The position numbers and the translations under genes were made by a program. From IMG/VR virus record IMGVR_UViG_3300027762_000001: a DNA stretch of 64,000 bases; one strand, 5' to 3'. This stretch comes from a virus. Of the stretch, positions 12,793-63,906 are shown piece after piece. The notes under the pieces were generated by a model that did no database searches, was not told the DNA's origin, and worked only from the letters and a program-made list of their open reading frames with translations. Position 1 is the stretch's first letter. The number at the start of each line of letters is the position of its first letter.

Positions 12793-12810
12793 TAGTATAA
12801 GATATAAAAG
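12793..12810 (+). promoter_or_regulatory. Phage-specific promoter-like motif, copy 1
   Basis: TAGTATAAGATATAAAAG. Confidence 0.65.
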
Positions 12811-12858
12811 CAAATGATTTTTGCTTTTTAAATTATTTTTTTAAAGGGGGTAATTTTT

Positions 12859-13401
12859 TTGAATATCAATATTCCTGATGATCACAACCCAAAATACAAT
12901 ATTTCTAAAGAGGACCTAGAAAAGGCAAATGAGCTAATTAGAAATATGAGTTTAGAAAAGGGTGATGATTTAGTAATTAAAGATAATATGTTAATTAAAA
13001 AAACAAAGAACTATGATGCAATATGGAAAGCTTTTTTAGATCAGGAAGAAGAGGAATTCAAGAAAAAAATGAAGTATGGGAAAGAGGATATTGAGAGGAT
13101 AGGAGTAAATGAATTTATTGATTTTTTAGATTGGAGGGATGAAAACGACATAAGTAAATGGAGAACTGATACTTTACATGTAATACCTTGTCTTAACTGT
13201 CAAGATGCCTTTGCTATATTTGAACATCTTGCTTTGTGTAAAAAATGTGAAGGCTTATACGATTTAAGTAAATATTGGGAAGATGCAAGACAAGGAGAAA
13301 TAAAAAAAGAAGGCGCATCATATGCTCAACTCCTTAACTTTACATTTAATAAAAGTGTAAGAAGTAAATATCTAAAAGGAGAAAAGGGATGCGAAAATTA
13401 G
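12859..13401 (+). CDS. Hypothetical protein with CxxC..CxxC Zn motif
   Basis: CLNC...CKKC; RBS aaggggg. Confidence 0.6.
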   Translation: MNINIPDDHNPKYNISKEDLEKANELIRNMSLEKGDDLVIKDNMLIKKTKNYDAIWKAFLDQEEEEFKKKMKYGKEDIERIGVNEFIDFLDWRDENDISKWRTDTLHVIPCLNCQDAFAIFEHLALCKKCEGLYDLSKYWEDARQGEIKKEGASYAQLLNFTFNKSVRSKYLKGEKGCEN

Positions 13402-13658
13402 AGAGAACTATTAAAGCTATAGGATTTTATATAGCTTCAACAAATTCAACAATAAGAGATGCAGCTCAAAAATTTGGCATATCAAAAAGTACAGTTCATA
13501 CTTATATGAAGAATAAACTTTTAGAAATAGATTATGGTTTATTTCTAAAAGTAAAAAGAGTTTTACAGCAAAATAAAGAGGACGCCCCAAGGAGAGGTGG
13601 CATAGCTTTAAAGGGGAGGCCATCAAATCATAAAAAAGTGAGGAATTTAGTAGTTTAG
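13389..13658 (+). CDS. spoIIID: SpoIIID-like sporulation transcription regulator
   Basis: RTIK.IG.YI..T..T.R..A..FG.SKSTVH.....L.EI...L...VK..L..N......RGG.A follows the SpoIIID pattern over its full length. Confidence 0.9.
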   Translation: MRKLERTIKAIGFYIASTNSTIRDAAQKFGISKSTVHTYMKNKLLEIDYGLFLKVKRVLQQNKEDAPRRGGIALKGRPSNHKKVRNLVV

Positions 13659-13660
13659 GA

Positions 13661-14332
13661 GTGGTAGTTATGAAGGTGATTTATGGATTAAAAATGATTG
13701 ACTTGGAGGATATTATGAGTAACTTCAATGTCGGAAGACCATCTGGTATATGTAATTATTTAAAAAATGATATAGAAGAAAATCCAGATATAATAAATGA
13801 ATTTGATAACAAACTCATAATAGATACAAGCTTAGGTGGAGAAAATACAATCCACAATATTTTAAAACCATACAAATTAATATTTATCCCTTTAGATATT
13901 GTAGAAGAAAAAATAATAAGTAGTGGAATAATAAACTACTTAAAAGGTACAATGGGTAGTTTCTTAAACTTAAGAAGGATTTCTAAAATAGAAAAAACCA
14001 TAGAGGATTATAATGATAGATATTTATCGGTTTGTGAAAAATATAAAAATACGGATAAAATCTTGAATTCTACGTGTTGTATGTTAATATTTGAAGGAGA
14101 TGATTTTTTAGATGTAAGAACCGTCACACCTTCTATATTGTTAAAAGAAGTTATATTCAAAAAAGAAGCATATGTTTGTTCTATATGTAAGAAAAATATA
14201 ATTGTTGATAATACTTCAATGGAAGATTTTATACCTGATATGAACTATGAAACAAATGAGAAAAAAGAAATATTTTATTTTTGTAAAAAATGTTGCAAGG
14301 ACAGGCCTAACGCAAAACAAGTTGGAAATTAA
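13661..14332 (+). CDS. Hypothetical protein with C-terminal Zn ribbon
   Basis: CSIC...FCKKC. Confidence 0.6.
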   Translation: MVVMKVIYGLKMIDLEDIMSNFNVGRPSGICNYLKNDIEENPDIINEFDNKLIIDTSLGGENTIHNILKPYKLIFIPLDIVEEKIISSGIINYLKGTMGSFLNLRRISKIEKTIEDYNDRYLSVCEKYKNTDKILNSTCCMLIFEGDDFLDVRTVTPSILLKEVIFKKEAYVCSICKKNIIVDNTSMEDFIPDMNYETNEKKEIFYFCKKCCKDRPNAKQVGN

Positions 14333-14391
14333 AGAATTTTAAAATAAAATAAAACTTATTTTAAAAATAAAAAAAGAGAGGGGTCAGTAAA

Positions 14392-14667
14392 ATGAATGCA
14401 AGTGATATTATTGAAAAAGTTAGCAAGGATTTAGGTTTACCAAAAACAACAGTAAAATCAGTATTAAAAGCAACAGAGGAAACAGTTTTAGAAGGTCTTA
14501 AGAGTGATAAGTATGTAAAGTTTGGAACGTTAGGTGCATTTAAAAATGCTCACAGAAATGAAAAAGAAGGTATCAATCCAGCAACAGGTGAAGCTATTGT
14601 AATTCCAGCTCATAATACTATAACATTTAAGCAAAGTGCAACAGCAAAAAGATACATCAACGAATAA
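14392..14667 (+). CDS. hup: HU/IHF family DNA-binding protein
   Basis: G.F....R....G.NP.TGE...IPA.....FK signature, 91 aa. Confidence 0.92.
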   Translation: MNASDIIEKVSKDLGLPKTTVKSVLKATEETVLEGLKSDKYVKFGTLGAFKNAHRNEKEGINPATGEAIVIPAHNTITFKQSATAKRYINE

Positions 14668-14686
14668 TTAAAAAGGAGATAATATT

Positions 14687-20916: not shown

Positions 20917-20947
20917 AAAAAAACAAGGGATTATCCCTTGTTTTTTT
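20917..20947. terminator. Bidirectional terminator
   Basis: aaaaaaacaaggga-tta-tcccttgttttttt between convergent genes. Confidence 0.8.
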
Positions 20948-21208: not shown

Positions 21209-21237
21209 TTGATATTTTTTAGCCTTAACAATATAAT
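21209..21237 (+). promoter_or_regulatory. sigmaA-type promoter for head-protein operon
   Basis: TTGATA-N17-TATAAT. Confidence 0.6.
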
Positions 21238-21291: not shown

Positions 21292-22254
21292 ATGCCATCA
21301 TTATTAGAAGCTTTATCTGGCGGACTAAGTTTTTCATCACCAGCAGTAAAAGATTCAGGGAGCTTCGCTCTTCAGTTAGGGCTTTATAAAGATTCAGTTG
21401 TTAACGATTATAATAAATACAGTACACCACTAAACGAGAGCATTGCAAAAATAGCAAAAGAAAACAGCTTAAATGATAATCAGATACAAAGAATAGTTGA
21501 AGAAGTAAATAACCAAGTTTACCTTGTAAAATATGCTCAAGTAAAACAATACAAAGAAAGAGAAGTAATCTTTGATTTAGCATCTTTAAAAGTTGTTAAA
21601 GGTATACTAGAAGGAAAAGAAGCTATAGAAGATAACGATTCTATTGAGAAAAAAGCTAGCTGGAAAGAAGGAGACGATTTAAATTTTTTAAATTATAATA
21701 AATGTAAATTGCCAGGAATGAGAGAAGATAAAATTAAACCATTATCAGAAATAATGGGGGAAAAATTAGCACACGAAATATCTGAGAAAAATAAAAATTT
21801 TGATAAGGCATTGGAAAAATTTGCAGAAACAACTTATGATATAGCTGAAGCATTAATAAAGTATGATAGATTTAATAAAGACCCTCAAGAAATTTTTAGT
21901 CATATATGTAAAGAGGCAAGTGTAAATAAATATGACCAAATAATGATTAAAAAGGCTGTAACTCAAAAAGTTAATCAATTAAAAGAAGCAAGATATCTTC
22001 CGTCTGATTATAAGTTAGAATTAAATATAGTAGACTGTGCAAAGGAAGATAATTTTTCACTAGGCGAATATAGTTTAAATAAAAGAGCAAATGTAGCGCA
22101 AAGCAATGTTGAACTTCCTGTTATAGAAACTGATAGTAAAAAAGTAATAAAAAATATTCAAAGCCTTATAAATATGGCAGAGAAAATGCAAGAAGAAAAA
22201 CAAAAAGTTATTAATTTAAATGAAAATAAAAATATAATTAATAACTTAAAATAA
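21292..22254 (+). CDS. Hypothetical head-associated protein
   Basis: aaggagtga RBS; K-x-A sites EKKAS, EKLAH, EKFAE, KEAS, KRAN. Confidence 0.6.
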   Translation: MPSLLEALSGGLSFSSPAVKDSGSFALQLGLYKDSVVNDYNKYSTPLNESIAKIAKENSLNDNQIQRIVEEVNNQVYLVKYAQVKQYKEREVIFDLASLKVVKGILEGKEAIEDNDSIEKKASWKEGDDLNFLNYNKCKLPGMREDKIKPLSEIMGEKLAHEISEKNKNFDKALEKFAETTYDIAEALIKYDRFNKDPQEIFSHICKEASVNKYDQIMIKKAVTQKVNQLKEARYLPSDYKLELNIVDCAKEDNFSLGEYSLNKRANVAQSNVELPVIETDSKKVIKNIQSLINMAEKMQEEKQKVINLNENKNIINNLK

Positions 22255-22274
22255 AAATGGAAGGAGGAACCTTT

Positions 22275-23378
22275 ATGCCTCACGGTGCAGTCAAGACTCC
22301 CGAGCAAGAAGTGTTATGGGAAAAGGCAAAATTGCAAGCCGAAAAGCAGGGTCAAAAAGATAACTTTGCCTATATAATGGCTATATATAAAAATATGGGC
22401 GGTCTTAATAAAACTGCTATGGAAGATATTTTTATGGAGAAAACAGCTAAAGTTGGTTTTATAGGAAGGGTATTAGGGAAAAATGTAGGCATTGCAAAAA
22501 AAGAATTAGGCTCAGCTCTTAAAGATTTTCAAACAAAAAAAAGTTTATTAAGAAATAAAAAAGTCCAATCAGGTTTTAAATTAGGGCCACTTGATTTTAG
22601 AAAAGAAACTCCATTATACAATAAGTCTGAAATTAGAAAAATATTAAGTTCAGACATGAATAAACTGCAAGATCTTAGAACATTAAAAAAACTTGAAAAT
22701 AAAGAAACTTTTAATGCTAGAGTTAAAGGTGCTTTAGGTTTGGGCGGATTAGCAGCTGCAACACCTTATTTAAAAGATAAAATAGTAAAAGGTAAATACA
22801 CTTATCCACAAGAAACTTATACGGAAGAAACTATTGCGAACAGTGTAGTGCATGGTCTACTAAAGGAAGCTTCAATAAAAAATAAAACTCTCAACTTTTT
22901 AAAGGGAGTAAAAGATATTGGTACATTTAAAGGATATAGTGCTGCAAAACAAAATTTAAAAAATATAGAGAAGGGAGTAAATCCAACTTATTCCCTAAAA
23001 ATAAAAGAGCTTATAGGCCTTAAGAGGTCCATTAAAAACTTAAGCGGAAAAAATGAAGAGTTGAAAAAACAAATATTAAGAGAAAAAGGGTTGGATGAAA
23101 ACTCTGTATCAAGAACAATAATAGACAGAATAAAAGATGGCAATGATGTTTTAAATGCAAAAAGCAGAAGGGCGAAAGATTTAGAAAATTTATATAAAGG
23201 TAATCAAGATATTATTGGAACTGCAAATAATAAATACCAAAAAGAATATAATAAATTTGTTGACGTTAAAGACAGGGAGCTCTCTAAATCACTTGGTCTC
23301 TGGAGCATTCCAACTGTAGGAGCCCTTTATGGTGGTAAAAAAATATTAGATAAACGAAAAGAAAAGGGTAGTCCTTGA
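22275..23378 (+). CDS. Candidate polyprotein: small helical N-domain (ChaB-like?) plus basic amphipathic modules
   Basis: KTAMEDIFMEKTA and LLKEAS linkers separate modules ending in Gly-rich hydrophobic segments. Confidence 0.55.
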   Translation: MPHGAVKTPEQEVLWEKAKLQAEKQGQKDNFAYIMAIYKNMGGLNKTAMEDIFMEKTAKVGFIGRVLGKNVGIAKKELGSALKDFQTKKSLLRNKKVQSGFKLGPLDFRKETPLYNKSEIRKILSSDMNKLQDLRTLKKLENKETFNARVKGALGLGGLAAATPYLKDKIVKGKYTYPQETYTEETIANSVVHGLLKEASIKNKTLNFLKGVKDIGTFKGYSAAKQNLKNIEKGVNPTYSLKIKELIGLKRSIKNLSGKNEELKKQILREKGLDENSVSRTIIDRIKDGNDVLNAKSRRAKDLENLYKGNQDIIGTANNKYQKEYNKFVDVKDRELSKSLGLWSIPTVGALYGGKKILDKRKEKGSP

Positions 23379-23441
23379 TTATTTTGTTTCAATAAATTAA
23401 AATAGTTTTATAATACTTATTCTTTGGGAGGTTTTTAAGTT

Positions 23442-24371
23442 ATGAATAATAATGAATATAACGTATTGGTTGAAAAGTTAGCAGAGGAAATTATAGTTGA
23501 TACAGCAAAAAGATCGGAAGGTAATTTTGGGCAACCAGGAAGCTTTCCAAATATGCAACAAGAACCAAATGGTGGAGTGTCAGGTTTAGAAAGAGGCGGA
23601 GAAGAATCAAAGAGTATAGGGTCTAAGTTTTTAGATTTTATAAAAGGAACTAAAAAAGTAGAAGTTGGACCTAATGTTGTTGCTGATGCTTCAACAGGAG
23701 ATTATGCGGTTAGTGAAACTAAAGTTGCTTATGAAGAATTAGAACTAGTTAAAACTGCAGCTGAAAAAGCTTTTAATGAAGCTGACAATTATGTTCACAG
23801 TGATTCAATAAAAGAAGCAGCTTATCAAATCTATGAAGAAGCAATAGAAAAAGAAGCTACTCTAGCTTATTCTGAATCTCAAATGTTAAAACAAGCAGCT
23901 GAAGAAGCTTTCTCTGAAGCTGATAATTATGAAGATGAAGAATATATTAAACAAGCAGCTTATGAAATATTCATGGAAGCTGAAGAAGTTGAAAAGGCAG
24001 CATCAGAATATTTAGCAGAAAAAACTATAGAAGAAGCTGCGGAAGCATTTGATTACTCTCAAATGTTAAAAAGTGCGGCTGAAGAAGCTTATGCAGAAGC
24101 TGACAATTATGAAGACAGCGAGTATATCAAACAAGCAGCAGAAGAAATTTACGCTGAAGCTTTAAGTATAGAAAAAGAGGCTGGTAGCTTTTTAGTTGAA
24201 ATAGAAAAAGTAGCCGAAGAAGCGGCAGAAGAAGCAACTAAAGAAGAAGAAGATGAAGAGGAAGAAGAAGATGAAAAAGAAGAGCCTAAAGAAGATAAAG
24301 AAGAGGCTTCTAATAGTATGGCTCAAAAAATAATAGAAGAAGCGGCAAAGAAAAAAATGAATAACGAATAA
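23442..24371 (+). CDS. Glu/Ala-rich repeat protein (scaffold/core-like)
   Basis: Three K.AAE.A..EADNY.....IK.AA..I..EA repeats; acidic tail. Confidence 0.6.
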   Translation: MNNNEYNVLVEKLAEEIIVDTAKRSEGNFGQPGSFPNMQQEPNGGVSGLERGGEESKSIGSKFLDFIKGTKKVEVGPNVVADASTGDYAVSETKVAYEELELVKTAAEKAFNEADNYVHSDSIKEAAYQIYEEAIEKEATLAYSESQMLKQAAEEAFSEADNYEDEEYIKQAAYEIFMEAEEVEKAASEYLAEKTIEEAAEAFDYSQMLKSAAEEAYAEADNYEDSEYIKQAAEEIYAEALSIEKEAGSFLVEIEKVAEEAAEEATKEEEDEEEEEDEKEEPKEDKEEASNSMAQKIIEEAAKKKMNNE

Positions 24372-24450
24372 GCAAATCTTTAAAATCAGACATTTAAAAG
24401 GCATTTCTTTAATTTAAAGAAATGCCTTCTTCATAGAAAGGAGCATAGAG

Positions 24451-25872
24451 ATGGAGAAAAATTCTGGAGTAGGTAGCATATTAAGTACCGCATATGTTGG
24501 AAGTGAAGCTATTAAGGGAGCAAAGGAAAGTAAAAGACTCCTTAAAAATCCTAATGTAAATAAGTTTGATGAAATTTTAAAAAACACTCCACAAAAAACT
24601 ATTTCAACTTTTAAAATGTCATCAGCAATTGACGAGCTGTATCTTGAGAAATTATCATACGAAAACAATCAAAATAATGAAGATAAAAAAAAGAAAAGAA
24701 ATATAGCGCCTTACATAATTGGAGCATCTATATTGGGAGCTGGCGCTGCTGAAGCTATAAAAACAGGAAATCCATTAAGGCCACTGAGAACTGCAGGTAA
24801 AGCCTTGAAGGAATTTGGGCACAAGCTACCTAAAGCTGTACTTGGCAGAAGTGGAAAACCTATATTTGAAGGTTTAAGAAAATCTAAACAGATAGTTCAG
24901 GATACCAAAAAGTTTGATAAAGCATTACATGGAGGATCGCCACAAAATCTTCTCCATTATTATTTGCCAGGCGTTGTTTTTGGTGGAGGTATGGGTGCAA
25001 GCAATTTAGCGGTTCATTTGTTGGGAGATAAATACTTTGATAAAAAAGTTAATAGAAAATCATATAATAATTTCCCAAGCCCTAGTGTTCAAATATATAG
25101 AAAGAGAAAATCAGCATCAGATATGATAGATAATAATTTCATGGAAAAAATAGCACAACTAAAAGGCAAAGCTTTTGCTAAAAAATTATTTGTTGAAGAT
25201 TTTTTACAAAATAGTTTAAAAACAATACCTTTTGCACTAACTCCAATAGCTGTATCTCATGCAATGAATAGAAATTTAAAAACTGATTTTAGTCCAATAA
25301 GAGGAAGTAAAGCTCAAAATCATAATGTTGATAAAATTATAATCGAAGTGCCAAGAGAAAAACTTATTAAAACAGCAAACGTAAAAAAAAATTTTCAACT
25401 ATATAAAAAATTAAAAGGTAAAAATTTTAAAGGGTTTACTTTCAGTAAATTTAAACCTAAAGCTGATTCAGGTATAGAGTCATGGGAAAATTTTGCAAAA
25501 TATAGGGTGCCTGAAGGCATGGTCAGGTCTTTAAGTTGGTTTGGAGTTCCTGCGGCTATAACTGCGCTAACTGGAAGAAATATAAAAGGCTTAGGAGAAA
25601 AAGTTAAAAAACATGAAGATATAGATCCTGATAAAGTCAGAATAACAGTTGATAGAGGTTCTGAATACGATGATGCAAATAAATTTATGGATGCATCTAG
25701 AATGTCAAGAATGGCAGATACTAATGAATTATTTATTGAGAAAAAATCAAGTGTGACAAAAGACATAGATAAAATAGTGAAAAATATTTTATCTGAAAAT
25801 AAAAAACTTAAATCAATAAATCCAAGAGTTATAACTCAAGGTATTCAAAAAAACAAAAAAATGTTAGGATGA
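24451..25872 (+). CDS. Candidate polyprotein of membrane-active modules
   Basis: Linkers KMSSAIDELYLEKLS, KSASDMIDNNFMEKIA, KTA, RMADTNELFIEKKS; Gly-rich hydrophobic segments between. Confidence 0.55.
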   Translation: MEKNSGVGSILSTAYVGSEAIKGAKESKRLLKNPNVNKFDEILKNTPQKTISTFKMSSAIDELYLEKLSYENNQNNEDKKKKRNIAPYIIGASILGAGAAEAIKTGNPLRPLRTAGKALKEFGHKLPKAVLGRSGKPIFEGLRKSKQIVQDTKKFDKALHGGSPQNLLHYYLPGVVFGGGMGASNLAVHLLGDKYFDKKVNRKSYNNFPSPSVQIYRKRKSASDMIDNNFMEKIAQLKGKAFAKKLFVEDFLQNSLKTIPFALTPIAVSHAMNRNLKTDFSPIRGSKAQNHNVDKIIIEVPREKLIKTANVKKNFQLYKKLKGKNFKGFTFSKFKPKADSGIESWENFAKYRVPEGMVRSLSWFGVPAAITALTGRNIKGLGEKVKKHEDIDPDKVRITVDRGSEYDDANKFMDASRMSRMADTNELFIEKKSSVTKDIDKIVKNILSENKKLKSINPRVITQGIQKNKKMLG

Positions 25873-26123
25873 TAATTTTGAATAATATAATAAGCGTAAT
25901 AACTGAAGCTGCATCAAAGAAAAAATTAGTTGAAATAACATATCAAGACTCAAAAGGTCTTGTTACAAACAGAGAGACAGAGCCATATGAAATAAGAGAT
26001 AATTCTTATTATGGATTTTGTATTTTAAAAAACAGTATAAGAAAATTTAAATTATCTAACATTTTGTCAGCCAAAATGTTAGATAATGAGTATAGACCTA
26101 AGTGGTCAGTTAAAATTCCGTAA
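25869..26123 (+). CDS. Stand-alone WYL domain protein
   Basis: I..A......VEI.Y.D..G..T.R..EPY......YYGFC......R.FKL..I..A. Confidence 0.85.
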   Translation: MIILNNIISVITEAASKKKLVEITYQDSKGLVTNRETEPYEIRDNSYYGFCILKNSIRKFKLSNILSAKMLDNEYRPKWSVKIP

Positions 26124-28221: not shown

Positions 28222-30189
28222 ATGAGTGATATAAATAAAGACATAACAGAATTAGATGAACTTCCAATGAACGCCATAGATCTTGACAATCCTCTTGATG
28301 GTGATGATAAAAAAATTGCAATGTTAAGAGAGGAAAAAGATAAGGCTATAAGTATGGTGAAGATTGCATCTTTTGATGGAAGACTTCAAGACCCATACCC
28401 TACTCCATTTTTAAATTTATCCGATACCAAGATACCTAGGACATCAACTGAAATTTTTAAATGGTGTAAATATTTTTATACTTTTGACCCGCTAATTGCA
28501 GGAGCCATTAATGCACTATCCACTTTTCCAGTTACTGAAATTTATTTAGAAGATGTAGATGAAAACGGAAAAGGCGATAAAAATGAAGATAGTGATACTT
28601 TAATTTTATATAAAAAAATCTTTTTTAAAGATTTAAATATATATAAAATGTTAATTGAAATAGGTATAGATTATTATTTGTATGGCAACTGCTTTATATT
28701 TGGAGAACTACATACAAATAAAGCAACTGGTAGTGTTGAGTGGAAGAACATGGTGAGACTTGATCCTAATAGAGTTATTATAGATTATAACCCGGCTACA
28801 AAAGAAAAGAAATTTAAATGGAGAGTATCTCCATCTATTGCTAAAATTATAAAAGATAAAAAGCCAAAAGATGAGTATAATAAAATACCAGATATAATGA
28901 AAGAGGCAGTACTTAAAAATAACTCTATAGTATTAAATTCAAATAATATATATCACTTCCCAAGACCTACAGATTCAGCGGGAGATAATAATATTTGGGG
29001 AACACCTATTATTGCAAATGTACTAAAACTTTTAATGTATAGAAATATATTAAGACAATCTCAGGAGGCTATTGCGAGAGAACATATAGTGCCTATGAGA
29101 GTTTATTATTTAGATAGAACCAATGATTATAATCCTACGGCTGATTGGAATAAAGTTGCATCTAACTTTGCTGCTGAACTTAATAAATCAGTAAAAGACC
29201 CTAATTATAAAGTTGTATCTCCTGTTCCTGTTAATTTGATAAATGTTGGAGGTCAAGGAAGGGCTTTATTATTAACTCCAGAAATAGAGCAAATACAAGC
29301 TGAGATTTTGGCAGGAATGAATGTTCCAAGAGAGTTTATATTTGGTGGAGTTGGTTATTCTGGAAGTTCTATATCTTTAAAAATATTAGAAAATCAGTTT
29401 ATAACTTATAGACTTTTACTAAAAGACTTTATGCAAAACTTTATAATAAAAAATATGGCTAAAGCTAGAAAAGAATGGGTTAGTGAAAAGGATGATAGTT
29501 CATTAATTACAGTTAAAATGATGGACTTAAAAATGCAAGATGACGTACAGCAAAAACAATTAGTAATACAATTAAATCAAGCTGGCAAATGTACTAATGA
29601 GTATATGTGGAAAGTTATAGGAATGGACCCTGATAAAATGAGGGAGTCATTAAAAGATGAAGCAATAGAAGCTATAAAAACTGATACAGAAATAAAAATG
29701 GAGCAGTTAAAATCACAATTAGAACTTCAAAAGGTGCAGATGCAAGTAGATCAAGAAATAAGAAAATTCCAATTAGAGATGTATAAAAGTGACCCACAAA
29801 TGAATCAGGAAGAAGCTCAAATGAGTCAGGAACAACAAATGATGCAACAGCCTATGCAAGGACAGGGTCAAAGTCAAGACCAAGGTATGCATCCAGCGGC
29901 ACAAGGTCAAATGCAACCAGAGCAAATGCAACCAGAGCAAAATCCAGCTATTGACGAATCTGATGTCGTCAATGAGGATGCTCAGATTCAAAATGTTGCT
30001 CTTCAATTAATTAAAACAGGGGAAAAAGGAAGAGATGCTTTCTTAGCTTCCTTGCCTGATAGATATAAACAAAAAGTTATAAAGAAAATGCAAGAATTAA
30101 CAACATCTATGAATAATCAGCAAGGTGCAGGAATAGATATGAGACCTATGCCAGAACAAAAACCACCAAGAAGAGATAGCCTAAAATAA
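28222..30189 (+). CDS. Portal protein
   Basis: W..YFY..DPLI...I.....FP, Y..YGN.F, WG.P, P.R, G.NVP.EF..G; coiled coil and Gln-rich tail. Confidence 0.8.
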   Translation: MSDINKDITELDELPMNAIDLDNPLDGDDKKIAMLREEKDKAISMVKIASFDGRLQDPYPTPFLNLSDTKIPRTSTEIFKWCKYFYTFDPLIAGAINALSTFPVTEIYLEDVDENGKGDKNEDSDTLILYKKIFFKDLNIYKMLIEIGIDYYLYGNCFIFGELHTNKATGSVEWKNMVRLDPNRVIIDYNPATKEKKFKWRVSPSIAKIIKDKKPKDEYNKIPDIMKEAVLKNNSIVLNSNNIYHFPRPTDSAGDNNIWGTPIIANVLKLLMYRNILRQSQEAIAREHIVPMRVYYLDRTNDYNPTADWNKVASNFAAELNKSVKDPNYKVVSPVPVNLINVGGQGRALLLTPEIEQIQAEILAGMNVPREFIFGGVGYSGSSISLKILENQFITYRLLLKDFMQNFIIKNMAKARKEWVSEKDDSSLITVKMMDLKMQDDVQQKQLVIQLNQAGKCTNEYMWKVIGMDPDKMRESLKDEAIEAIKTDTEIKMEQLKSQLELQKVQMQVDQEIRKFQLEMYKSDPQMNQEEAQMSQEQQMMQQPMQGQGQSQDQGMHPAAQGQMQPEQMQPEQNPAIDESDVVNEDAQIQNVALQLIKTGEKGRDAFLASLPDRYKQKVIKKMQELTTSMNNQQGAGIDMRPMPEQKPPRRDSLK

Positions 30190-37281: not shown

Positions 37282-37298
37282 TAGCATTAGAAATAAAA
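37282..37298 (+). promoter_or_regulatory. Phage promoter-like motif, copy 2
   Basis: TAGCATTAGAAATAAAA (one mismatch). Confidence 0.6.
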
Positions 37299-37522: not shown

Positions 37523-37540
37523 TAGCATAAGATATAAAAG
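37523..37540 (+). promoter_or_regulatory. Phage promoter-like motif, copy 3
   Basis: TAGCATAAGATATAAAAG. Confidence 0.65.
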
Positions 37541-37817: not shown

Positions 37818-37834
37818 TAGTATAAGGAATAAAA
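37818..37834 (+). promoter_or_regulatory. Phage promoter-like motif, copy 4
   Basis: TAGTATAAGGAATAAAA. Confidence 0.65.
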
Positions 37835-44191: not shown

Positions 44192-44208
44192 TAGTATAAG
44201 AAATAAAA
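44192..44208 (+). promoter_or_regulatory. Phage promoter-like motif, copy 5
   Basis: TAGTATAAGAAATAAAA. Confidence 0.65.
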
Positions 44209-46646: not shown

Positions 46647-46664
46647 TAGCATAAGAAATAAAAG
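46647..46664 (+). promoter_or_regulatory. Phage promoter-like motif, copy 6
   Basis: TAGCATAAGAAATAAAAG. Confidence 0.65.
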
Positions 46665-47296: not shown

Positions 47297-47314
47297 TAGT
47301 ATAAGGGATAAAAG
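47297..47314 (+). promoter_or_regulatory. Phage promoter-like motif, copy 7
   Basis: TAGTATAAGGGATAAAAG. Confidence 0.65.
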
Positions 47315-47952: not shown

Positions 47953-47970
47953 TAGCATAAGATATAAAAG
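47953..47970 (+). promoter_or_regulatory. Phage promoter-like motif, copy 8
   Basis: TAGCATAAGATATAAAAG. Confidence 0.65.
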
Positions 47971-51935: not shown

Positions 51936-54900
51936 TTATGCTGATACAACTTCTAAGTAAAATTCACCATCTTTAACTACAAACCTATATTGAACACCTG
52001 TGTAGTCTGGATTAGTACCTTCGTCTTCGTAACTGTGAGGATTAGCCATATTATCTAAGTGATTGTCTGTCTTTTTATCAGCTCTTACTATCATATCACT
52101 ATTATCATTAATCTGTGCTTTAATAGTAGTACCGTAACTGTAAGTAGTAGTAGGTATAGTTCCTGTTCCACTTGAATATACAGTTCCTGACTTTTGAGCC
52201 TGTAATATTTGTGGGTCGTAAGTTGTTATAGTAGGAGTTGCTAGTTGATAATATACTTTAGTGCCAGCTAGAGCTGTTTTAGCTGCAGCTAAAGTTGCAT
52301 ATGTGCCTAACGCTACTACGAATCCTAACCTACCAGTAGTTGACACATAATATTTACCAATTTCACTTGTGGGAAGATTAGTTGGGTCTACATAGCTTGA
52401 TGCATCTTTTCCAATAACTCTTGTTTTACCATTAGTTGCAGGAGATAATGATAGATCGCCAGTTAAAAAATTAGTGCCAGTATATGCAACTTGAACATTA
52501 GTCATATTCTCGATATTCGTAATATCTGCTTCAACTAAGCTGTACTCATTACTTACATTCTTCGTATGAACTCCAGTCTGAACATCAAAACTATCTGATA
52601 TAGCAGGAACATTTCTTAATGCAACTGGTGTTTCTGCTACTGTTTCTTTGTATTCTTCGTATGTTGTAGCTGATGAGCCTTGTTCTAACTGTAATTCAAT
52701 AGCTTCAAAATCCTCTCCTATATCCCATGTTGATGAAGGATTTTTTCTAAAATTGAAAAATACATATTCTGTCTTAGTTAATGTAAATGTAGTTGTTAGT
52801 GGTTGCATACTCCCAAATATATCGCCACTATTTTGAGTTATCGCTTTATAGTATATTGCTTGGCTGCTTGACATTATGTATGTTCCAGCACCTAATAATA
52901 TATGATTAGTATGTCTATAAATTGTTGTGTCAGCACCTTCACCCTCATAAGGTGGATAAGTTAAATCATAACCAGTGTAAAAAGACTGATTTTGCAATAA
53001 ATTCTTCCCAACACTTGTTATAGTTTGTGACTGTGTATGTGCTGTGTCTCTATGATAAGCGTATTTTTCGAGTAAAGCATTAGCACCTAAGGCATATTCT
53101 GTAGCTGTTATTTCTTGTACCATTAGTGCATCTATATATCCATATTGATTTTCTGCTCCATCAATATATCCCATTATAAATATTGACGATGAAGCATCAA
53201 AGTCTGTTGGTTGTACAACTACTCCAACTCTAGTCCATGATGTAGAAGTTACAAAGCTGGATGCTACTGTATTATCTCCTATGGGAACAACTTGCATTCT
53301 AATTCCTGAACCTGATAAATTACCATTTTTTAAATACCCTGACACAAAATAATATTTACCAGCAGTGAATATAGAAGAATTACTATAATTTGCATAACCA
53401 TTTGTTTGACCAGCACTTAATGTCATTTTAATACAATTATCGCCTTCATACTCATTACTACTATCTAATGACCTTACACATCTAGTATTTCCCCAAGAAG
53501 TAACATCTTCACAACCAGCTATTGTATCAGGTAATTTATTAGTTACTGTATTACCTTTAACTACCATTTTAAGTTCTGATCTTTCTATATTATTAGAAGG
53601 TAAACTTATTATACTTTGTGTAACTTCAGTATTTGTTGAATAACTAGCTACTAATAAATTATCAATTCCATGAGCATTGGCTACATTATCAATATGACTT
53701 TCTACTTTATCATCTACCCTATCTATCATTTCACTATTATCATCTACTTGTGCTTTAATAGTAGTACCATAGCTATAAGTAGTAGTAGGAATAGTTCCTG
53801 CTCCACTTAAATATACAGTTCCTGATTTTTGAGCTTGAAGTATTTGTGGGTCGTAATTAGTTATAGTAGGTGTTGCTATTTGATAATATAACTTAGTTCC
53901 TGCTAGAGCTGTTTTAGCAGTGGCTAGACTTGCATATGTGCCTTTAGCCACTACAAAAGCAATTTCATTACTGAATGCAGTTAGCTTAAAAGTTCTAATA
54001 TATGACACATTATCAATACTTGTTCCTGATGTTGTTTGATTTTCTGAGTAGCCAATTAATCTGTAAGTGTCATATATGGCAACTGCTGTACTACCATATG
54101 CTTTTGATAAAGCATTTTTATTAATTTTAACATAATCAACATTAGTTAAACTTGTTACTAATTCAACTATATCTGCTTCAACTAAACTATACTCATCACT
54201 TACATTCTTAGTATGAATACCAGTCTGTACATCAAAAGTATCACTTATAACAGGAACGCTTCTAAGTGCAATTGGTGTTTCTGCTACTGTATCTTTGTAT
54301 GGTTCGTAAGTTGTAGCTGATGTGCCTAACTCAACTTGTTCTGTATTATGGTTATCTAATAAATCAGATATTTTAATCCAATATCCATTAGCAGGAATAG
54401 TGATTGTTGCACTATCTTGAGCGCCACTTATAAATGTTTTATTTATATCGTATATTGCGTGTCTACGTTGAGCGCCTCCACTACCAGACCTTCTATAAGA
54501 TGTGCTAGGAGTAACGGAAATCCAATCAGAAGCATAATGTAATACATTCGCGGTTAAATTACCAGTAATAGATGATATTAAATAACCACTTGCTTTAGTA
54601 TTTTTGTTAAACAAATTCTTCCCAACACTCGTTATAGTCTGTGGCTCGGTGTGTGCTGTACCTCTATGGAAAGCGTACTTGCTAAGTAAAGCAGTAGTAC
54701 CTAATGCGTATTCTGTGGCTGTTATTTCCTGTAGCATTAGTGCATCAACAAAGGCGTATTGTGTTTCTGTGCCAGTTACTCTTGTTTGTAATCTTAGTTG
54801 TGTTGCACTTGCCATGTCACTAGGTTGTACAACTATACCAACTCTAGTATAACTTGTCGCAGTTATGTATGAAGATGTTTTAGTCGCACCACCGCTAACA

Positions 54901-57900
54901 AATTCAGTTTCTAGTCTTATCCCAGTTGTAGCATTTCCGTTTTTCAAACGAATTGATATTAAATAATACTTAGAAATATCCAAACTTGCTAATATGTTTC
55001 TATAATTGTATGAAGTTGTTTGTCCCGCACTTAAAGTCTGCTTAAGGCAATTAGTTCCTTCAAACTCGTTGTCACTATCTGTTGCTAATGTACCTTGTAC
55101 TACACTCCACCCAGTAGTAGACTCACACCCTGCCACAGTATCTGCTAGCAAGTTAGTTACTGTATTACCTTTAACTGTTGTTTTAAGTTCACTTGTTTCA
55201 ATATTAGTCGAAGGTAAACTTATTATACTTTGCGTTACCTCTGTATCTGCTAAATAACTAGCCACTAATAAATTATCCATTCCATGAGCGTCAGTTTCAT
55301 TACCTAAATGAGATGCAAGATTTGAAGCTGTTGCATAGTGACTTCCTTCTTGACCATCAAGTAAATCGGCATCTAAACCTGAAGTAGTACCGTCTACTGT
55401 TTTAATGGCTGTCAATATTTCATTAGCTGTCATATCAGCAGTTGCATTTGATTCAACTCCATCCAACTTCGTTTTATCTGATGCACTCATTAAACCTGAG
55501 GCAGAAGTTGTAGCATTTGCTATAATATCAGAACCTCCAGTTATATGAGATGAAGCGTGGGCTCCAGGAAGTAATCCTGTATGACTGTGAGAACTAATTG
55601 CTCCTGTTAATTTGGCCTCAATTTCAGCCTTAGTTATATCGCTATTTTTTTGAGCATCAGAAGGAGCATGAGCTACTTGACTATGGTCATAAGCTGTTTT
55701 ACCTCTGTCGCCTCTATATGCTGTAGTATCTGTTTCTCCCAAAGCTAAATTAGATTTAGCATTCCAGGTACTTTTCTCAGTATCTGTTACAAATCTATTA
55801 TTTGTATCTTGAGTAATAATAGATGGAGCGTGATTTGCGGGATGTGTATAGTTGTTAGCATTTGTAGCTACTCCATCTAATTTTGTTTTATCAGTTGAAC
55901 TCATAAATCCATTAACAGAAGTGGTCGCCGCTCCATGCGCTGCACCTGTTGCTCCTACATGAGAGCTTGCAGCAAAGTCTGAAGCTAGATATCCACTATC
56001 CTTTAAAAGTTTTCCAGTAACGCCATCGAAGGCCGCTAATCTATTAGTTATTGAAGATGCAGGGCCTATAACAGCTCCATCAATATTTACTTGAATTATG
56101 TTAAAATTAGCCCCTACAGCAGCATGAGTTCCAGAAGCAGTCCCATCAACTGTACAAATTATCATATCGCCAACTTCAACATTAGGACCTGATGCACCAC
56201 CTATTTTACCGGAAACACTTACTTTCCAAGTATGACCAGCACTACCCGCAGAATAATTAGGATTAGCTGAACAATCAATAACTCCCTTATATACCATAGC
56301 GTCATTAGCGCCAATTAAATTATCAACATAAGTTTTAACCGCATCTGCTCTTGCAAGAGCTGTAGAACTACCAGTTAATGTAGTCTCAACAGTATATCCA
56401 TCATTTAAGGCATCCCCTGTAGCGCCATTCCATGTCGGAACAGCTCCACTTGTAGATGAAGCTCTCTTTTTGACTTGAGCGTCATCTGTAACATTAGTAA
56501 GCCCTACTTGAGCTTTAGTTACAGTATGAGGGTTAGATGTACTTCCTGTATGAGAGGTTAAATTTGAAGCTGTAGCATAATGACTTCCTTCTTGACCATC
56601 TAATAAGTCAGCATCTAATCCTGAAGTTGTGCCATCAACTGTTTTTATAGCTGTTAATATTTCATTAGCTGTCATATCAGCAGTTGCATTTGATTCAACG
56701 CCATCTAACTTTGTTTTATCTGATGCACTCATTAAACCTGCAACGCTTGTTGTAGCATTTGCTATAACATCAGAGCCCCCAGTTATATGAGTGGAAGCAT
56801 GAGTTCCAGGAGTTAATCCTGTATGGTCATGAGAGCTAATAGAACCTGTTAATTTAGCTTCTATTTCAGCTTTAGTTATATCACTATTTTTTTGAGCATC
56901 AGAAGGAGCATGAGCTACTTGACTATGGTCATAAGCTGTTTTTCCTCTGTCACCCCTGTAAGCTGTAGTATCTGTTTCTCCCAAAGCTAAATTAGATTTA
57001 GCATTCCAAGTACTCTTTTCAGTATCTGTAACAAATCTATTATTAGTATCTTGAGTTATAATAGAAGGATCATGATTTGCTGGATGAGTATAATTGTTAG
57101 CACTTGTAGCAACTCCATCTAATTTAGTCTTATCAGTTGAGCTCATAAATCCGTCAACGGAAGTAGTTGATACTCCATGAGCATTGCCAGTTGCTCCTAC
57201 ATGAGAACTTGCAGCAAAATCAGATACTAAATATCCACTATCTTTTAAAAGTTTCCCTGTAACACCATCAAAAGCTGCTAATCTATTATTTGTTGATGAG
57301 GCAGGTCCAATAACCGATCCATCAATATTTACTTGAATTATATTAAAATTAGAACCAACAGTTGCGTGGTCTCCAGAAGACGTGCTGTCCACTGTACATA
57401 TTATCATGTCTCCAACTTCAACGTTAGGCCCTGATGCTCCACCTATTTTTCCTGCTACACTTACCTTCCAAGTGTGACCAGCATCACCCGCGGAATAATT
57501 TGGATTAGCGGAACAATCAATAGCGCCTTTAAATACCATTGCATCATTGGCACCAATTAAATTATCCACATAAGTTTTTACAGCGTCAGCTCTTGGTATT
57601 GATGTGGAACCTCCAGATAGTGTAGTTTCTACACCATATCCGTCAGTTAGAGCATCACCATTTGAGCCATTCCATGTTGGTATATTTCCACCTGTTGAAG
57701 AAGCTCTCTTTTTGACTTGAGCATCATCTGTAACATTTGTAAGTCCTACTTGAGCTTTAGTTACAGTGTGAGGGTTATTAGTCAGTGAAGTATGATCATA
57801 AGCTGTTTTTCCTCTGTCTCCTCTATAAGCATTAGTTGATAATTCTCCTAAAGCTAAATCTGATTTTGCATTCCATGTACTCTTCTCAGCATCTGTAACA

Positions 57901-58337
57901 AATCTATTATTTGTATCTTGAGTTATTATAGAGGGATCATGATTTGCAGGATGGGTATAATTATTAGCATTCTCTGCTATATTGGCTAATTTACTTTTCT
58001 CAGTTGTAGTATAATCTTCAGTTGAAAGACCTTTACCTGTGATCTTGTCGACTTTATCACCTAAAGCAGAAGCTGTGGCATAATAACTTCCCTCTTGACC
58101 ATCTAACTTATCTGAATCATCTACAATGCCATCTTGGTTAGTGTCGTATATAGCTCTAACCATATCTCCGCCGGCACTACCAGGTATATATTCTAAGTCA
58201 TTCCATGCAGTTATGCCATCACCTATTTTAATTTTTAGCGTATCTGTTTCTACTCCAACTTCTCCTTCTGCCAATATAGGATTTATTATAGTCCAATTTT
58301 CAGCAGTATCTCTTCTTAACTGAATTTGTTGTGCCAT
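51936..58337 (-). CDS. Long tail fibre protein with tandem duplications
   Basis: IQLRRDT...W...NP.L..GE.G.ETDT.K.KIGDG..WN.L.Y; NPH.VTKAQVGL, G.MS..DKTKLDG, GLDADLLDG repeats; two ~414-aa and two ~540-aa units. Confidence 0.88.
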   Translation of the reverse strand: MAQQIQLRRDTAENWTIINPILAEGEVGVETDTLKIKIGDGITAWNDLEYIPGSAGGDMVRAIYDTNQDGIVDDSDKLDGQEGSYYATASALGDKVDKITGKGLSTEDYTTTEKSKLANIAENANNYTHPANHDPSIITQDTNNRFVTDAEKSTWNAKSDLALGELSTNAYRGDRGKTAYDHTSLTNNPHTVTKAQVGLTNVTDDAQVKKRASSTGGNIPTWNGSNGDALTDGYGVETTLSGGSTSIPRADAVKTYVDNLIGANDAMVFKGAIDCSANPNYSAGDAGHTWKVSVAGKIGGASGPNVEVGDMIICTVDSTSSGDHATVGSNFNIIQVNIDGSVIGPASSTNNRLAAFDGVTGKLLKDSGYLVSDFAASSHVGATGNAHGVSTTSVDGFMSSTDKTKLDGVATSANNYTHPANHDPSIITQDTNNRFVTDTEKSTWNAKSNLALGETDTTAYRGDRGKTAYDHSQVAHAPSDAQKNSDITKAEIEAKLTGSISSHDHTGLTPGTHASTHITGGSDVIANATTSVAGLMSASDKTKLDGVESNATADMTANEILTAIKTVDGTTSGLDADLLDGQEGSHYATASNLTSHTGSTSNPHTVTKAQVGLTNVTDDAQVKKRASSTSGAVPTWNGATGDALNDGYTVETTLTGSSTALARADAVKTYVDNLIGANDAMVYKGVIDCSANPNYSAGSAGHTWKVSVSGKIGGASGPNVEVGDMIICTVDGTASGTHAAVGANFNIIQVNIDGAVIGPASSITNRLAAFDGVTGKLLKDSGYLASDFAASSHVGATGAAHGAATTSVNGFMSSTDKTKLDGVATNANNYTHPANHAPSIITQDTNNRFVTDTEKSTWNAKSNLALGETDTTAYRGDRGKTAYDHSQVAHAPSDAQKNSDITKAEIEAKLTGAISSHSHTGLLPGAHASSHITGGSDIIANATTSASGLMSASDKTKLDGVESNATADMTANEILTAIKTVDGTTSGLDADLLDGQEGSHYATASNLASHLGNETDAHGMDNLLVASYLADTEVTQSIISLPSTNIETSELKTTVKGNTVTNLLADTVAGCESTTGWSVVQGTLATDSDNEFEGTNCLKQTLSAGQTTSYNYRNILASLDISKYYLISIRLKNGNATTGIRLETEFVSGGATKTSSYITATSYTRVGIVVQPSDMASATQLRLQTRVTGTETQYAFVDALMLQEITATEYALGTTALLSKYAFHRGTAHTEPQTITSVGKNLFNKNTKASGYLISSITGNLTANVLHYASDWISVTPSTSYRRSGSGGAQRRHAIYDINKTFISGAQDSATITIPANGYWIKISDLLDNHNTEQVELGTSATTYEPYKDTVAETPIALRSVPVISDTFDVQTGIHTKNVSDEYSLVEADIVELVTSLTNVDYVKINKNALSKAYGSTAVAIYDTYRLIGYSENQTTSGTSIDNVSYIRTFKLTAFSNEIAFVVAKGTYASLATAKTALAGTKLYYQIATPTITNYDPQILQAQKSGTVYLSGAGTIPTTTYSYGTTIKAQVDDNSEMIDRVDDKVESHIDNVANAHGIDNLLVASYSTNTEVTQSIISLPSNNIERSELKMVVKGNTVTNKLPDTIAGCEDVTSWGNTRCVRSLDSSNEYEGDNCIKMTLSAGQTNGYANYSNSSIFTAGKYYFVSGYLKNGNLSGSGIRMQVVPIGDNTVASSFVTSTSWTRVGVVVQPTDFDASSSIFIMGYIDGAENQYGYIDALMVQEITATEYALGANALLEKYAYHRDTAHTQSQTITSVGKNLLQNQSFYTGYDLTYPPYEGEGADTTIYRHTNHILLGAGTYIMSSSQAIYYKAITQNSGDIFGSMQPLTTTFTLTKTEYVFFNFRKNPSSTWDIGEDFEAIELQLEQGSSATTYEEYKETVAETPVALRNVPAISDSFDVQTGVHTKNVSNEYSLVEADITNIENMTNVQVAYTGTNFLTGDLSLSPATNGKTRVIGKDASSYVDPTNLPTSEIGKYYVSTTGRLGFVVALGTYATLAAAKTALAGTKVYYQLATPTITTYDPQILQAQKSGTVYSSGTGTIPTTTYSYGTTIKAQINDNSDMIVRADKKTDNHLDNMANPHSYEDEGTNPDYTGVQYRFVVKDGEFYLEVVSA

Positions 58338-58338
58338 T

Positions 58339-58554
58339 TTATGCTCCACCTCCATTTATTCCTTGTGTACCACCATACACAGAACTTGCATTTCCACCAT
58401 CTGCTTGAAAAAATGCAGCAATTTTAACAGGTGGGCTGCCAGGACCAACTCCAATATATAATTCTTTAGTATCTGTACAAAAAAGCGGTTCACCGCTAGC
58501 ACCTTCAGATGGAAGATCTTGTTTTAGTCCCCTTCGAATTTTAATCGTGGCCAT
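58339..58554 (-). CDS. Small Mtd-N-like tail-associated protein
   Basis: IKIRRG...LP.....GEP.FCTDTKELYIG. Confidence 0.65.
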   Translation of the reverse strand: MATIKIRRGLKQDLPSEGASGEPLFCTDTKELYIGVGPGSPPVKIAAFFQADGGNASSVYGGTQGINGGGA

Positions 58555-60944: not shown

Positions 60945-60962
60945 TAGCATAAGAAATAAAAG
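60945..60962 (+). promoter_or_regulatory. Phage promoter-like motif, copy 9
   Basis: TAGCATAAGAAATAAAAG. Confidence 0.65.
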
Positions 60963-62563: not shown

Positions 62564-63223
62564 ATGCTTAAGATCACTAAGAAATTTACAGTACTCCTAA
62601 CTTTAATTACTTTAATCACAAGTGTTACAAATTATTCTTATGCAAGTTCATCGAGGCTAGGTGTAGTCTCAGTATGGATGGGCTATTTAAATTTAAGGTC
62701 AGGACCTGGAATACACTATAGAGTAAAATCTAAAATGCCAAAAAATACAATAATAAGAGTCCATTCTACAAGTGGTACATGGTATAAAGTGTCATACGGG
62801 AGAACAGTAGGTTACGCAGACAAGAGATATATAAAATTATACTCAAACACAAGGGCAGTAAGAGCGACAAGTGAAGCTTTAAGTTTCATGGGAGTTAGAT
62901 ATGTTTGGGGAGGAACATCTCCTAGGGGATTCGACTGCTCTGGAGTTGTGCAATATGTGTATAAAAGGCAAGGTATAAACTTGCCAAGAGTTGCACATGC
63001 TCAGTCTAGAACTGGTAAGTGGGTATCTAAGAAAAATTTAATAGTTGGAGATTTAGTATTTTTTTCATCAAGTAGAAGCTATAATAATGTCACACATGTT
63101 GGAATTTATATAGGCCAAGGAAAATTTGTACATGCATCATCTGGAGCTAAATGTGTTACTGTTAGTTATTTAAGTAAATTATATTATTTGAGAACTTATG
63201 TTGGAGCAAGAAGAGTTTACTAA
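62564..63223 (+). CDS. Secreted SH3b-NlpC/P60 cell-wall peptidase
   Basis: Signal peptide; LNLRSGPG..WYKV.Y....GY; Y.WGG.SP.GFDCSG, GDLVFF, HVGIY.G...F.HAS. Confidence 0.95.
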   Translation: MLKITKKFTVLLTLITLITSVTNYSYASSSRLGVVSVWMGYLNLRSGPGIHYRVKSKMPKNTIIRVHSTSGTWYKVSYGRTVGYADKRYIKLYSNTRAVRATSEALSFMGVRYVWGGTSPRGFDCSGVVQYVYKRQGINLPRVAHAQSRTGKWVSKKNLIVGDLVFFSSSRSYNNVTHVGIYIGQGKFVHASSGAKCVTVSYLSKLYYLRTYVGARRVY

Positions 63224-63297
63224 GGCTCAAAATTAAGATATAAGCTAATAAAATATAAAGAGAGTGGAAATATTGCTCTCTCTTTTTTTTGTCATTA

Positions 63298-63315
63298 TAG
63301 CATAAGAAATAAAAG
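63298..63315 (+). promoter_or_regulatory. Phage promoter-like motif, copy 10
   Basis: TAGCATAAGAAATAAAAG right after terminator 63257-63290. Confidence 0.65.
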
Positions 63316-63447
63316 AAATATTATATAGAAAAGGTCAATAAGTTTAAGCAAGCAATAGTTTTAAATTCTCACTTTCTTACCCAGAAAACATTTATATCTT
63401 TCTTTAATTGCTTGCTTAAACTATGACAAATAAGGAGGGGTCAACTT

Positions 63448-63606
63448 GTGAACACTTTTATTGAAGGCGCACAATTTGCTATAGGGGTAATTGTGGTTAA
63501 TATTACTATTGCAGGAAGTTGTAAAATCATTGATTGCATTGATAAAAAGATGAATAAAAAAAGGCGTAATATTACTATAGGCTTTAATCGCAAAACAAAC
63601 AATTAG
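63448..63606 (+). CDS. 52-aa membrane peptide, not in ORF track
   Basis: aaggagg RBS then GTG; FAIGVIVVNITIAG. Confidence 0.55.
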   Translation: MNTFIEGAQFAIGVIVVNITIAGSCKIIDCIDKKMNKKRRNITIGFNRKTNN

Positions 63607-63633
63607 GGGATAAAAATTAGGAGGAGAATAAGT

Positions 63634-63855
63634 ATGGATTTTTATGTAGGATTAGCGGTAGGGATTTTTGCAGGAGTAACAGGGGCATTTTGTTATATGT
63701 TCTCAGATGTTAAAAAGGAAAAGGACAAGTATATTGGATTTTCAAGTGCATATGCTGAGATAATGGACAATAAATGCAGAAATATTTTTAATACATCAAA
63801 TGCAAAAATAGAGAGTAAGAGACATAAAGGAAGTAAAAGTATGTCGAGGCGTTAA
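63634..63855 (+). CDS. Small single-TM protein
   Basis: ggagg RBS; FYVGLAVGIFAGVTGAF. Confidence 0.65.
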   Translation: MDFYVGLAVGIFAGVTGAFCYMFSDVKKEKDKYIGFSSAYAEIMDNKCRNIFNTSNAKIESKRHKGSKSMSRR

Positions 63856-63888
63856 GCCTCTTTTTCTATTTTTAAAAGTGTTTTTTGG

Positions 63889-63906
63889 TAGTATAAGGAA
63901 GAAAAG
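63889..63906 (+). promoter_or_regulatory. Phage promoter-like motif, copy 11
   Basis: TAGTATAAGGAAGAAAAG after terminator 63846-63865. Confidence 0.6.

Follow-up and report, generated by a model that had tools for sequence, protein, structure and literature searches.

Across a 64,000-nucleotide (nt) stretch of the IMG/VR virus record IMGVR_UViG_3300027762_000001 (here called the window; bases 70475-134474 of the genome, hereafter G000), a conserved AT-rich motif, TAGYATAAGnnATAAAA, precedes non-structural genes and is very probably a promoter. The explanation that we favor, with moderate confidence, is that it is an early promoter read by an injected holoenzyme composed of the phage's fused beta-beta' RNA polymerase (RNAP) and a divergent phage sigma factor. 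G000 is a complete phage record of 152,620 bp with 30.7% GC and direct terminal repeats of 123 bp; the phage is uncultured and known here from its sequence alone. Among the 192 genes called, the + strand blocks comprise small open reading frames (ORFs) of unknown function together with replication and nucleotide genes (a DnaE-type polymerase, a Toprim primase-like protein, UvsW-like and other helicases, ThyX and a deoxynucleoside monophosphate (dNMP) kinase). Virion genes occupy the minus strand; they encode the major head protein, protease, sheath, tail fibre and terminase. Searches of G000 for tRNAs and Rfam families found none.

Scanned with the pattern TAGYATAAGRDATAAAA, allowing up to one mismatch, the window contains 11 matches, compared with 0.11 expected from dinucleotide-preserving shuffles (largest shuffle count, 1). 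Nine are exact, and those at 37282 and 63889 carry one mismatch each. An initial annotation of the window had described 11 intergenic copies on the + strand, two of them with one mismatch, as a candidate early promoter of the phage RNAP, and our scan returns the same count, coordinates and strand. Extending the search to the whole genome, a check which that annotation had proposed, gave 20 copies in the forward direction and none in reverse. All 20 are intergenic and all 20 lie ahead of a + strand gene. The siting upstream of ribosome-binding sites (RBSs) that had been reported also holds, since 14 of the 20 lie within 60 nt of an RBS-bearing start codon when small ORFs and alternative starts are counted. 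No virion gene follows any of the 20 copies, in line with the earlier remark that none precedes a structural gene.

The motif recurs in related phages. The fused RNAP of G000 has counterparts, 44-53% identical, in six IMG/VR records, all of which carry a common core, GTATAAG-NN-AT[A/T]AAA. In three complete genomes the core, with the variants TnGTATAAGnnATAAAA and TAGTATAAGAYATTAAA, is confined to one strand, with 41 copies in G001 (167 kb), 26 in G002 (161 kb) and 33 in G006 (168 kb). Counting intergenic copies only (20 in G000, 39 in G001, 26 in G002), 84 of 85 stand ahead of a co-directional gene, and across three whole genomes none of the relatives' copies stands ahead of virion genes. A search of 19 more distant RNAP-encoding phage records (RNAP 26-30% identical) returned no copy of the core. 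Its presence in close relatives and absence from distant RNAP phages indicate that the motif is a property of the lineage, co-occurring with the lineage's RNAP, as the initial annotation had suggested examining. The RNAP family comprises at least 75 clusters at 90% identity, with proteins of 2215-2346 aa on contigs of up to 170 kb; no match for the RNAP gene turned up when the GenBank phage collection was searched with megablast. Two members carry the labels of Herbinix and Paraclostridium metagenome-assembled genomes, which point to clostridial hosts. In G002, one copy with a single mismatch (25550-25566, +; L034:5550-5566) lies between the RNAP and portal genes and is directed antisense into the latter.

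The surroundings of the motif bear on its function. At 9 of 20 sites in G000 and 12 of 39 in G001, a hairpin that resembles a terminator and carries a T-run ends 8-44 nt ahead of the motif, compared with 2-4% of control intergenic positions; for the nine G000 sites the distance is 16-34 nt (control, 2%), which bears out the frequent placement after terminators noted earlier. Alignment of the upstream regions revealed no other conserved box between terminator and motif, and a terminator directly upstream leaves no room for another promoter. On the downstream side, a Shine-Dalgarno sequence starts 0-8 nt past the motif at 11 sites, and start codons in G001 cluster 20-26 nt past it. Stable hairpins that begin at motif positions 14-17, with the final AAAG of the motif as their 5′ arm, are found at 5 of 20 sites in G000, 13 of 39 in G001 and 7 of 26 in G002. 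Together, RBS spacing and these 5′-proximal hairpins place the start site at about motif positions 15-17, so that transcription probably begins near the 3′ end of the motif. About 30% of motif copies are directly followed by a stable hairpin, often with a U-rich tail (window 12807-12850; genome 22661, 31040 and 40208; many in G001 and G002), which could be a 5′ stabilizer or a promoter-proximal attenuator.

Eighteen positions are conserved in the aligned intergenic copies of G000, G001 and G002 (T n G Y A T A A G n n A T W A A A G). We infer a register in which YATAAG would take the place of the -10 hexamer (-12 to -7), T-n-G that of an extended -10 element, and ATAAAA the positions from -4 to +2. 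Numbered in this way, the A at -11 is invariant and -7 is an invariant G at 85 sites in three genomes, contrary to the sigma70 rule of T at this position. Upstream there is a weak T-rich patch at about -36 to -32, followed by A at -31/-30 (0.4-0.8 bits); the initial annotation had seen no shared -35, and we likewise find no strong element, only this patch 17-20 nt before the motif. An alternative register with ATAAAA as the -10 box is less likely, as it would put the start inside or beyond the RBS at the tightest sites and past the beginning of the 5′ hairpin. The ATAAG shared with the TAAG core of baculovirus late promoters was treated as coincidence.

The reading as a promoter given by the initial annotation is well supported by where the motif lies, its strand, its terminator context and its conservation among relatives, and the annotation was right to link an early, non-structural class to the phage RNAP and not to host sigma-A. 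It missed a phage sigma factor, so that the reader is probably sigma together with the RNAP rather than the RNAP alone. The sigma factor is the 282-aa product of a divergent sigma70-family gene (Table 1) that Pfam does not see: Sigma70_r2 was not found in G000, and Sigma70_r4 gave only weak helix-turn-helix (HTH) matches. Used as a profile with two homologues, the protein matches SigA structures at E 4e-8 in a search against PDB, and a profile of 64 family members does so at E 2.5e-17 over regions 2 to 4.2; the family, of which this protein is the founding member, has about 45-76 representatives at 50% clustering. Its AlphaFold (AF2) model has a pLDDT of 91.4, and among the Foldseek matches listed all are sigma-factor chains. 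It is the sole gene of this type in G000. In relatives it lies on the virion-gene strand and co-occurs with the RNAP in every sufficiently complete genome; of the distant RNAP phages, all 8 that are complete have an ORF resembling sigma. Alignment with SigA shows that the aromatic residues of region 2.3-2.4, which read TATAAT, are replaced, and this fits a non-TATAAT specificity. We consider it probable that the phage sigma reads the motif; that it does so together with the phage RNAP is a claim we favor more cautiously.

A model of sigma in complex with RNAP residues 1060-1420 gave an ipSAE of 0.81 (best control, 0.00), a level that 58 of 80 solved complexes attained, as did 2 of 110 mismatched pairs. 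Three runs had at least 64% of contacts in common, with a partner pLDDT of at least 74, and sigma residues 41-49 and 67-82 are predicted to lie on the RNAP coiled coil 1307-1344. Since the modelled interface coincides with the textbook contact of sigma2 and the clamp helix, the high score may reflect solved holoenzymes that the predictor had memorized. We therefore take the model to show likeness to the sigma2/clamp-helix interface rather than binding.

The fused RNAP has a core that is 36-39% identical to bacterial beta', and the small ORF that follows the portal gene overlaps its start, implying that the RNAP is co-transcribed with the portal gene. The portal-RNAP module (window 21292-37237, from the first large unknown protein to the RNAP) has no motif of its own. 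It is preceded by a sigma-A-type promoter-like site and is separated by a terminator-like hairpin from the motif-driven unit upstream (Table 1). Relative to G001, G002, G006 and G007 the module is inverted in G000; in those relatives, four of the five long genomes, the RNAP, capsid and sigma genes lie on the strand opposite the motif. Judging from this gene arrangement, the RNAP and sigma appear to be expressed with the virion genes and not from the motif. Some RNAP homologues carry insertions that look like inteins: P0182 (2869 aa) has LAGLIDADG/Hom_end domains, and the 2812-aa RNAP ORF of the relative G005 (L021 10001-18379) has an insertion of about 500 aa between query residues 1514 and 1509.

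Table 1. Positions of the motif copies and of the genes and signals discussed (window coordinates unless marked as genome)
Feature	Position	Strand	Remarks
Motif, exact	12793..12809	+	Heads unit g110-g119 (dNMP kinase, helicase, C1 peptidase)
Terminator-like hairpin + T-run	20924..20947	+	Between the motif-driven unit from 12793 and the portal-RNAP module
Sigma-A-type promoter-like site (TTGATA-17-TATAAT)	21209..21237	+	55 nt before first gene of portal-RNAP module
Portal gene	28222..30189	+	phrog_16240, E 1.7e-18
71-aa ORF	30202-30417	+	Between portal and RNAP; 11-nt overlap with RNAP start
Fused beta-beta' RNAP (g129), 2276 aa	30407-37237	+	Seven Pfam RNAP domains; NADFDGD intact
Motif, 1 mismatch	37282..37298	+	17 nt past terminator 37244-37265; just downstream of RNAP gene
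Motif, exact	37523..37539	+	RBS begins about 5 nt on, start codon 17 nt on
Motif, exact	37818..37834	+	Past terminator 37768-37783; ahead of MerR-like HTH gene
Motif, exact	44192..44208	+	Ahead of 71-aa ORF sitting between minus-strand genes
Motif, exact	46647..46663	+	Reverse complement overlaps TGnTATAAT box facing minus-strand SNF2 helicase gene
Motif, exact	47297..47313	+	
Motif, exact	47953..47969	+	Past terminator 47908-47931
Motif, exact	60945..60961	+	Divergent intergenic region
Motif, exact	63298..63314	+	
Motif, 1 mismatch	63889..63905	+	
Divergent sigma70-family gene, 282 aa	genome 57306-58154 (L012:3309-4154)	-	Baseplate/tail operon, about 12.3 kb before window

Virion operons seem to be served by a second class of promoter. 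TATAATA and related words are enriched ahead of them (in G001, 9 of 28 regions, compared with 0.72 expected), and TGnTATAAT-like boxes or -35/-10 pairs stand ahead of several virion operons and of the portal-RNAP module. A generic sigma-70 scan performed at chance level, with 73 sites found and 74 expected, and in DNA this AT-rich such a scan is unable by itself to assign TATAAT-type sites. The MerR-like/DUF1836 HTH gene behind one motif copy (window 37852-38331, +) is a candidate early-made regulator of TATAAT-type promoters. Motif copies that have C as their fourth base and follow an ATTA read TGCTATAAT in reverse complement, as at window 46643-46671 (-), 37519-37527 and 63294-63302. The TGCTATAAT box at 46647 faces the SNF2 helicase gene, so that two divergent promoters would use the same bases.

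Promoters of replication and host-takeover genes need a polymerase, which must be there at the start of infection, and an early promoter read by a phage RNAP would therefore require the enzyme in the virion. This was a further gap in the reading given by the initial annotation, and it can be bridged provisionally from gene position and from distant cultured phages. Purified virions of Salmonella phage Arash contain RNAP beta (with the highest spectral count), beta' and the sigma factor gp10 (PMC10585845), and particles of Yersinia phage YerA41 contain RNAP subunits and a late-expressed sigma (PMC7354516); the word "promoter" does not occur in either paper. An N-terminal tag of the form hydrophobic-x-K-hydrophobic-A marks 12 of 73 late-strand proteins compared with 3 of 119 others (p 0.0013) and is enriched in the virion-strand proteins of three genomes (p 0.0013-0.014; for example the capsid and protease at window 5354-11821). 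Sigma carries the tag, which lends weak support to the idea that sigma may be capsid cargo; on the RNAP the tag is not clearly present. With gene positions, the logic of infection start and the two cultured phages all pointing towards it, we regard delivery of the enzyme in the virion as a possibility that is almost evenly balanced.

We propose the following sequence of events. The motif, spanning about -15 to +2/+3 with ATAAAA(G) as discriminator and start region, would be the promoter of non-structural genes, namely host-takeover ORFs, replication and nucleotide metabolism. Its reader would be the holoenzyme of the fused RNAP and the phage sigma, whose genes would be expressed with the virion genes from TATAAT-type promoters; being made with the virion genes, the holoenzyme would probably be packed in the capsid and injected, and would then start the early program. 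Virion genes would follow later from sigma-A-like promoters, in an N4-like order. The most specific form of this proposal, a packed and injected holoenzyme of two polypeptides (beta-beta' and a minimal sigma, with no alpha or omega) that uses a compact promoter (-15 to +2) with a -10 box ending in G and leaves only the late virion genes to the host polymerase, is tentative.

Several observations weigh against this explanation. The G at -7 is unlike any sigma70-family -10 element known to us, the signal resembling a -35 is weak although region 4 of sigma is conserved, and the -10 assignment rests on spacing arguments, while the register with ATAAAA as the -10 box still leaves a short leader at most sites. 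The complex model is unable to tell the phage RNAP from the host core as a partner for sigma. In G000 itself the portal-RNAP module is on the motif strand, and orientation alone would leave read-through from the motif possible, with the terminator-like hairpin at 20924-20947 intervening. As for the cultured phages, the RNAP subunit genes of YerA41 are classed as early (PMC7354516), and the Arash virion list runs to 116 proteins, with its authors noting possible carry-over of abundant enzymes (PMC10585845).

The early timing of the YerA41 genes also suits a different order of events, in which the motif is a middle-class promoter: host sigma-A holoenzyme would begin with the TATAAT-type promoters and so make the RNAP and sigma after infection, the new enzyme would then read the motif, and nothing would be packaged. 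The sigma-A-like sites ahead of the portal-RNAP module and of other minus-strand operons are compatible with this, and packaging in the G000 phage is argued indirectly. Yet replication genes (DnaE, primase-like, helicases, ThyX) and takeover-type ORFs would then be expressed only after the portal, capsid and tail operons, which have the same type of promoter as the RNAP. The translational link between the RNAP and the portal operon, the place of sigma within the baseplate operon, and the occurrence of both proteins in particles of distant cultured phages (PMC10585845, PMC7354516) also argue against it, and we regard such a scheme as unlikely. It is similarly unlikely, if not slightly more so, that the phage sigma redirects the host core to the motif while the fused RNAP acts elsewhere, for example in late or TATAAT-type transcription. 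Sigma is a full sigma2-3-4 protein that could fit a bacterial core, and the failure of the complex model to separate the two cores leaves room for this; the conservation of a clamp-helix-like site in the phage RNAP, paired with sigma region 2 in the model, argues otherwise, as do the co-occurrence of sigma and RNAP in sufficiently complete relatives and in all eight complete distant RNAP phages and the presence of both in virions of distant cultured phages. Precedents for such redirection are SPO1 gp28 and phiEco32 gp36, phage sigma70-family proteins that define a phage-only promoter class on the host core. Neither phage encodes an RNAP, and both express sigma from early or middle genes that lie outside the virion operons.

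It is much less probable that the host polymerase reads the motif with one of its own sigma factors, be it a variant of sigma-A or a sporulation factor such as sigma-K or sigma-E. YATAAG is similar to TATAAT, in some copies CATAAGATA agrees with the -10 box of sigma-K, and G000 encodes a 61-aa GerE/LuxR-type regulator. Nevertheless, the near-universal T at -7 is replaced by G in all intergenic copies of the three genomes aligned, the six bases past the box are equally invariant, unlike those of sigma-A promoters, and the core is conserved across relatives whose RNAP and host labels point to different clostridial genera; the generic sigma-70 scan, at chance, gives host sigma no help. The sigma-K alternative raised in the initial annotation did not hold up, in that only 4 of the 20 copies fit its box (CATA-N3-TA), whose first base, C, is replaced by T throughout the relatives. 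We give the lowest probability to the idea that the motif is no promoter and serves instead as a repressor operator or acts at the RNA level, for example in processing or in enhancing translation. The motif is AU-rich, close to ribosome-binding sites and strictly strand-specific, as such an element might be; it has no dyad symmetry and no Rfam match, however, and many copies come right after a terminator, where a transcript needs a promoter at the spot and no further conserved box lies between terminator and motif. Terminator context and the absence of symmetry led us to reject both of these readings.

Some neighboring features deserve mention. A two-way terminator at window 44461-44478 closes the unit headed by the motif copy at 44192. 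Two non-coding stretches of 1.0-1.2 kb (window 11822-12858 and L009:4217-5399) occupy divergent junctions between virion and early blocks, each with a motif copy at its end. The motif copy at genome 33235 leads into a GC-rich segment of about 190 nt (genome 33249-33440; L010:15249-15440, +) that contains no ORF, folds strongly (minimum free energy -69.4 kcal/mol, z -4.4), shows no Rfam match and closes with a terminator immediately ahead of the following copy; we consider it a candidate for a non-coding RNA of the phage. Elsewhere on the minus strand, window 51936-58355 encodes a tail-fibre-like protein of 2139 aa with an N-terminal Mtd_N domain. The GerE/LuxR-type HTH gene (L013:11008-11190, -; 61 aa, Pfam E 2e-16), a possible regulator, forms the downstream end of a minus-strand block, directly after a tail-protein-like gene.

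Sequence is enough to name the promoter, the candidate sigma and the candidate polymerase, which makes the system directly testable. If our interpretation is correct, no simpler sigma-dependent RNA polymerase than this pairing of a single chain with sigma would be known, and a large group of uncultured phages, with at least the 75 RNAP clusters counted above, would carry a self-contained and portable sigma-dependent transcription system. A -10 element with G at -7 would be useful for understanding how sigma domain 2 reads flipped bases, the system might be adapted for orthogonal expression in low-GC Gram-positive bacteria, and the finding of RNAP and sigma peptides in virions of Arash and YerA41 would be explained.

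The order of events proposed here resembles that of phage N4, in which an injected phage RNAP reads early promoters and transcription of the virion genes comes late, from promoters of the host sigma70 type. The injected enzyme of N4 consists of one T7-like subunit and reads DNA hairpins, and a second phage RNAP serves the middle genes. We know of injected-polymerase promoters in N4, phiKZ, AR9 and crAss-like phages, and of none that pairs a bacterial-type enzyme with a sigma70-family factor; a literature search for a phage fused RNAP with a sigma and a promoter found no such report. As a promoter, the motif resembles the extended -10 type (TGnTATAAT), with one box, a TATAA core, conserved bases upstream, a weak or absent -35 and a start about 7 nt downstream. 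It differs in having G at -13 rather than -14, an invariant G in place of T at -7 and invariant positions from -4 to +2, and the G at -7 sets it apart from canonical sigma-A promoters.

Early promoters of phiKZ and AR9 offer another parallel. They consist of a highly conserved AT-rich motif of about 10 nt or more, centred near -10 and read by an injected multisubunit-type RNAP, and sequence analysis suffices to detect them ahead of many early operons (PMC7598289). The G000 motif is likewise AT-rich, conserved and placed ahead of non-structural rather than virion genes. The enzymes are different: phiKZ and AR9 have RNAPs of 4-5 very divergent split subunits, no sigma70-family partner and a second, non-virion RNAP, whereas G000 encodes one fused chain with strong Pfam matches and a recognizable sigma. 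Among uncultured tailed phages, the mReC group of Weinheimer and Aylward (2020) has beta/beta' homologues detectable by cellular models (PMC7481178), as does G000. The capsid proteins of that group match PF07068 (T4 gp23 type), whereas that of G000 has no Pfam match at E 0.01 and phrog_2522 as its sole match; the paper mentions neither sigma nor promoters (PMC7481178).

The closest cultured counterparts are Arash and YerA41, phages of enterobacteria whose RNAPs are encoded by two or more genes and are about 26% identical to the fused chain of G000. Our motif scan at a similar distance (RNAPs 26-30% identical) covered 19 uncultured phages, rather than these two, and found no copy. Arash and YerA41 hold RNAP and sigma in their particles, whereas the G000 phage is known from its genes. 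The gene arrangement is nonetheless shared with Arash, where the portal gp204, the small gp205 and the RNAP gp206 follow one another in the same order as portal, small ORF and RNAP in G000, the portals are homologous (E 2e-46), and sigma lies among virion genes, with gp10 matching the sigma family at an hhalign probability of 98%.

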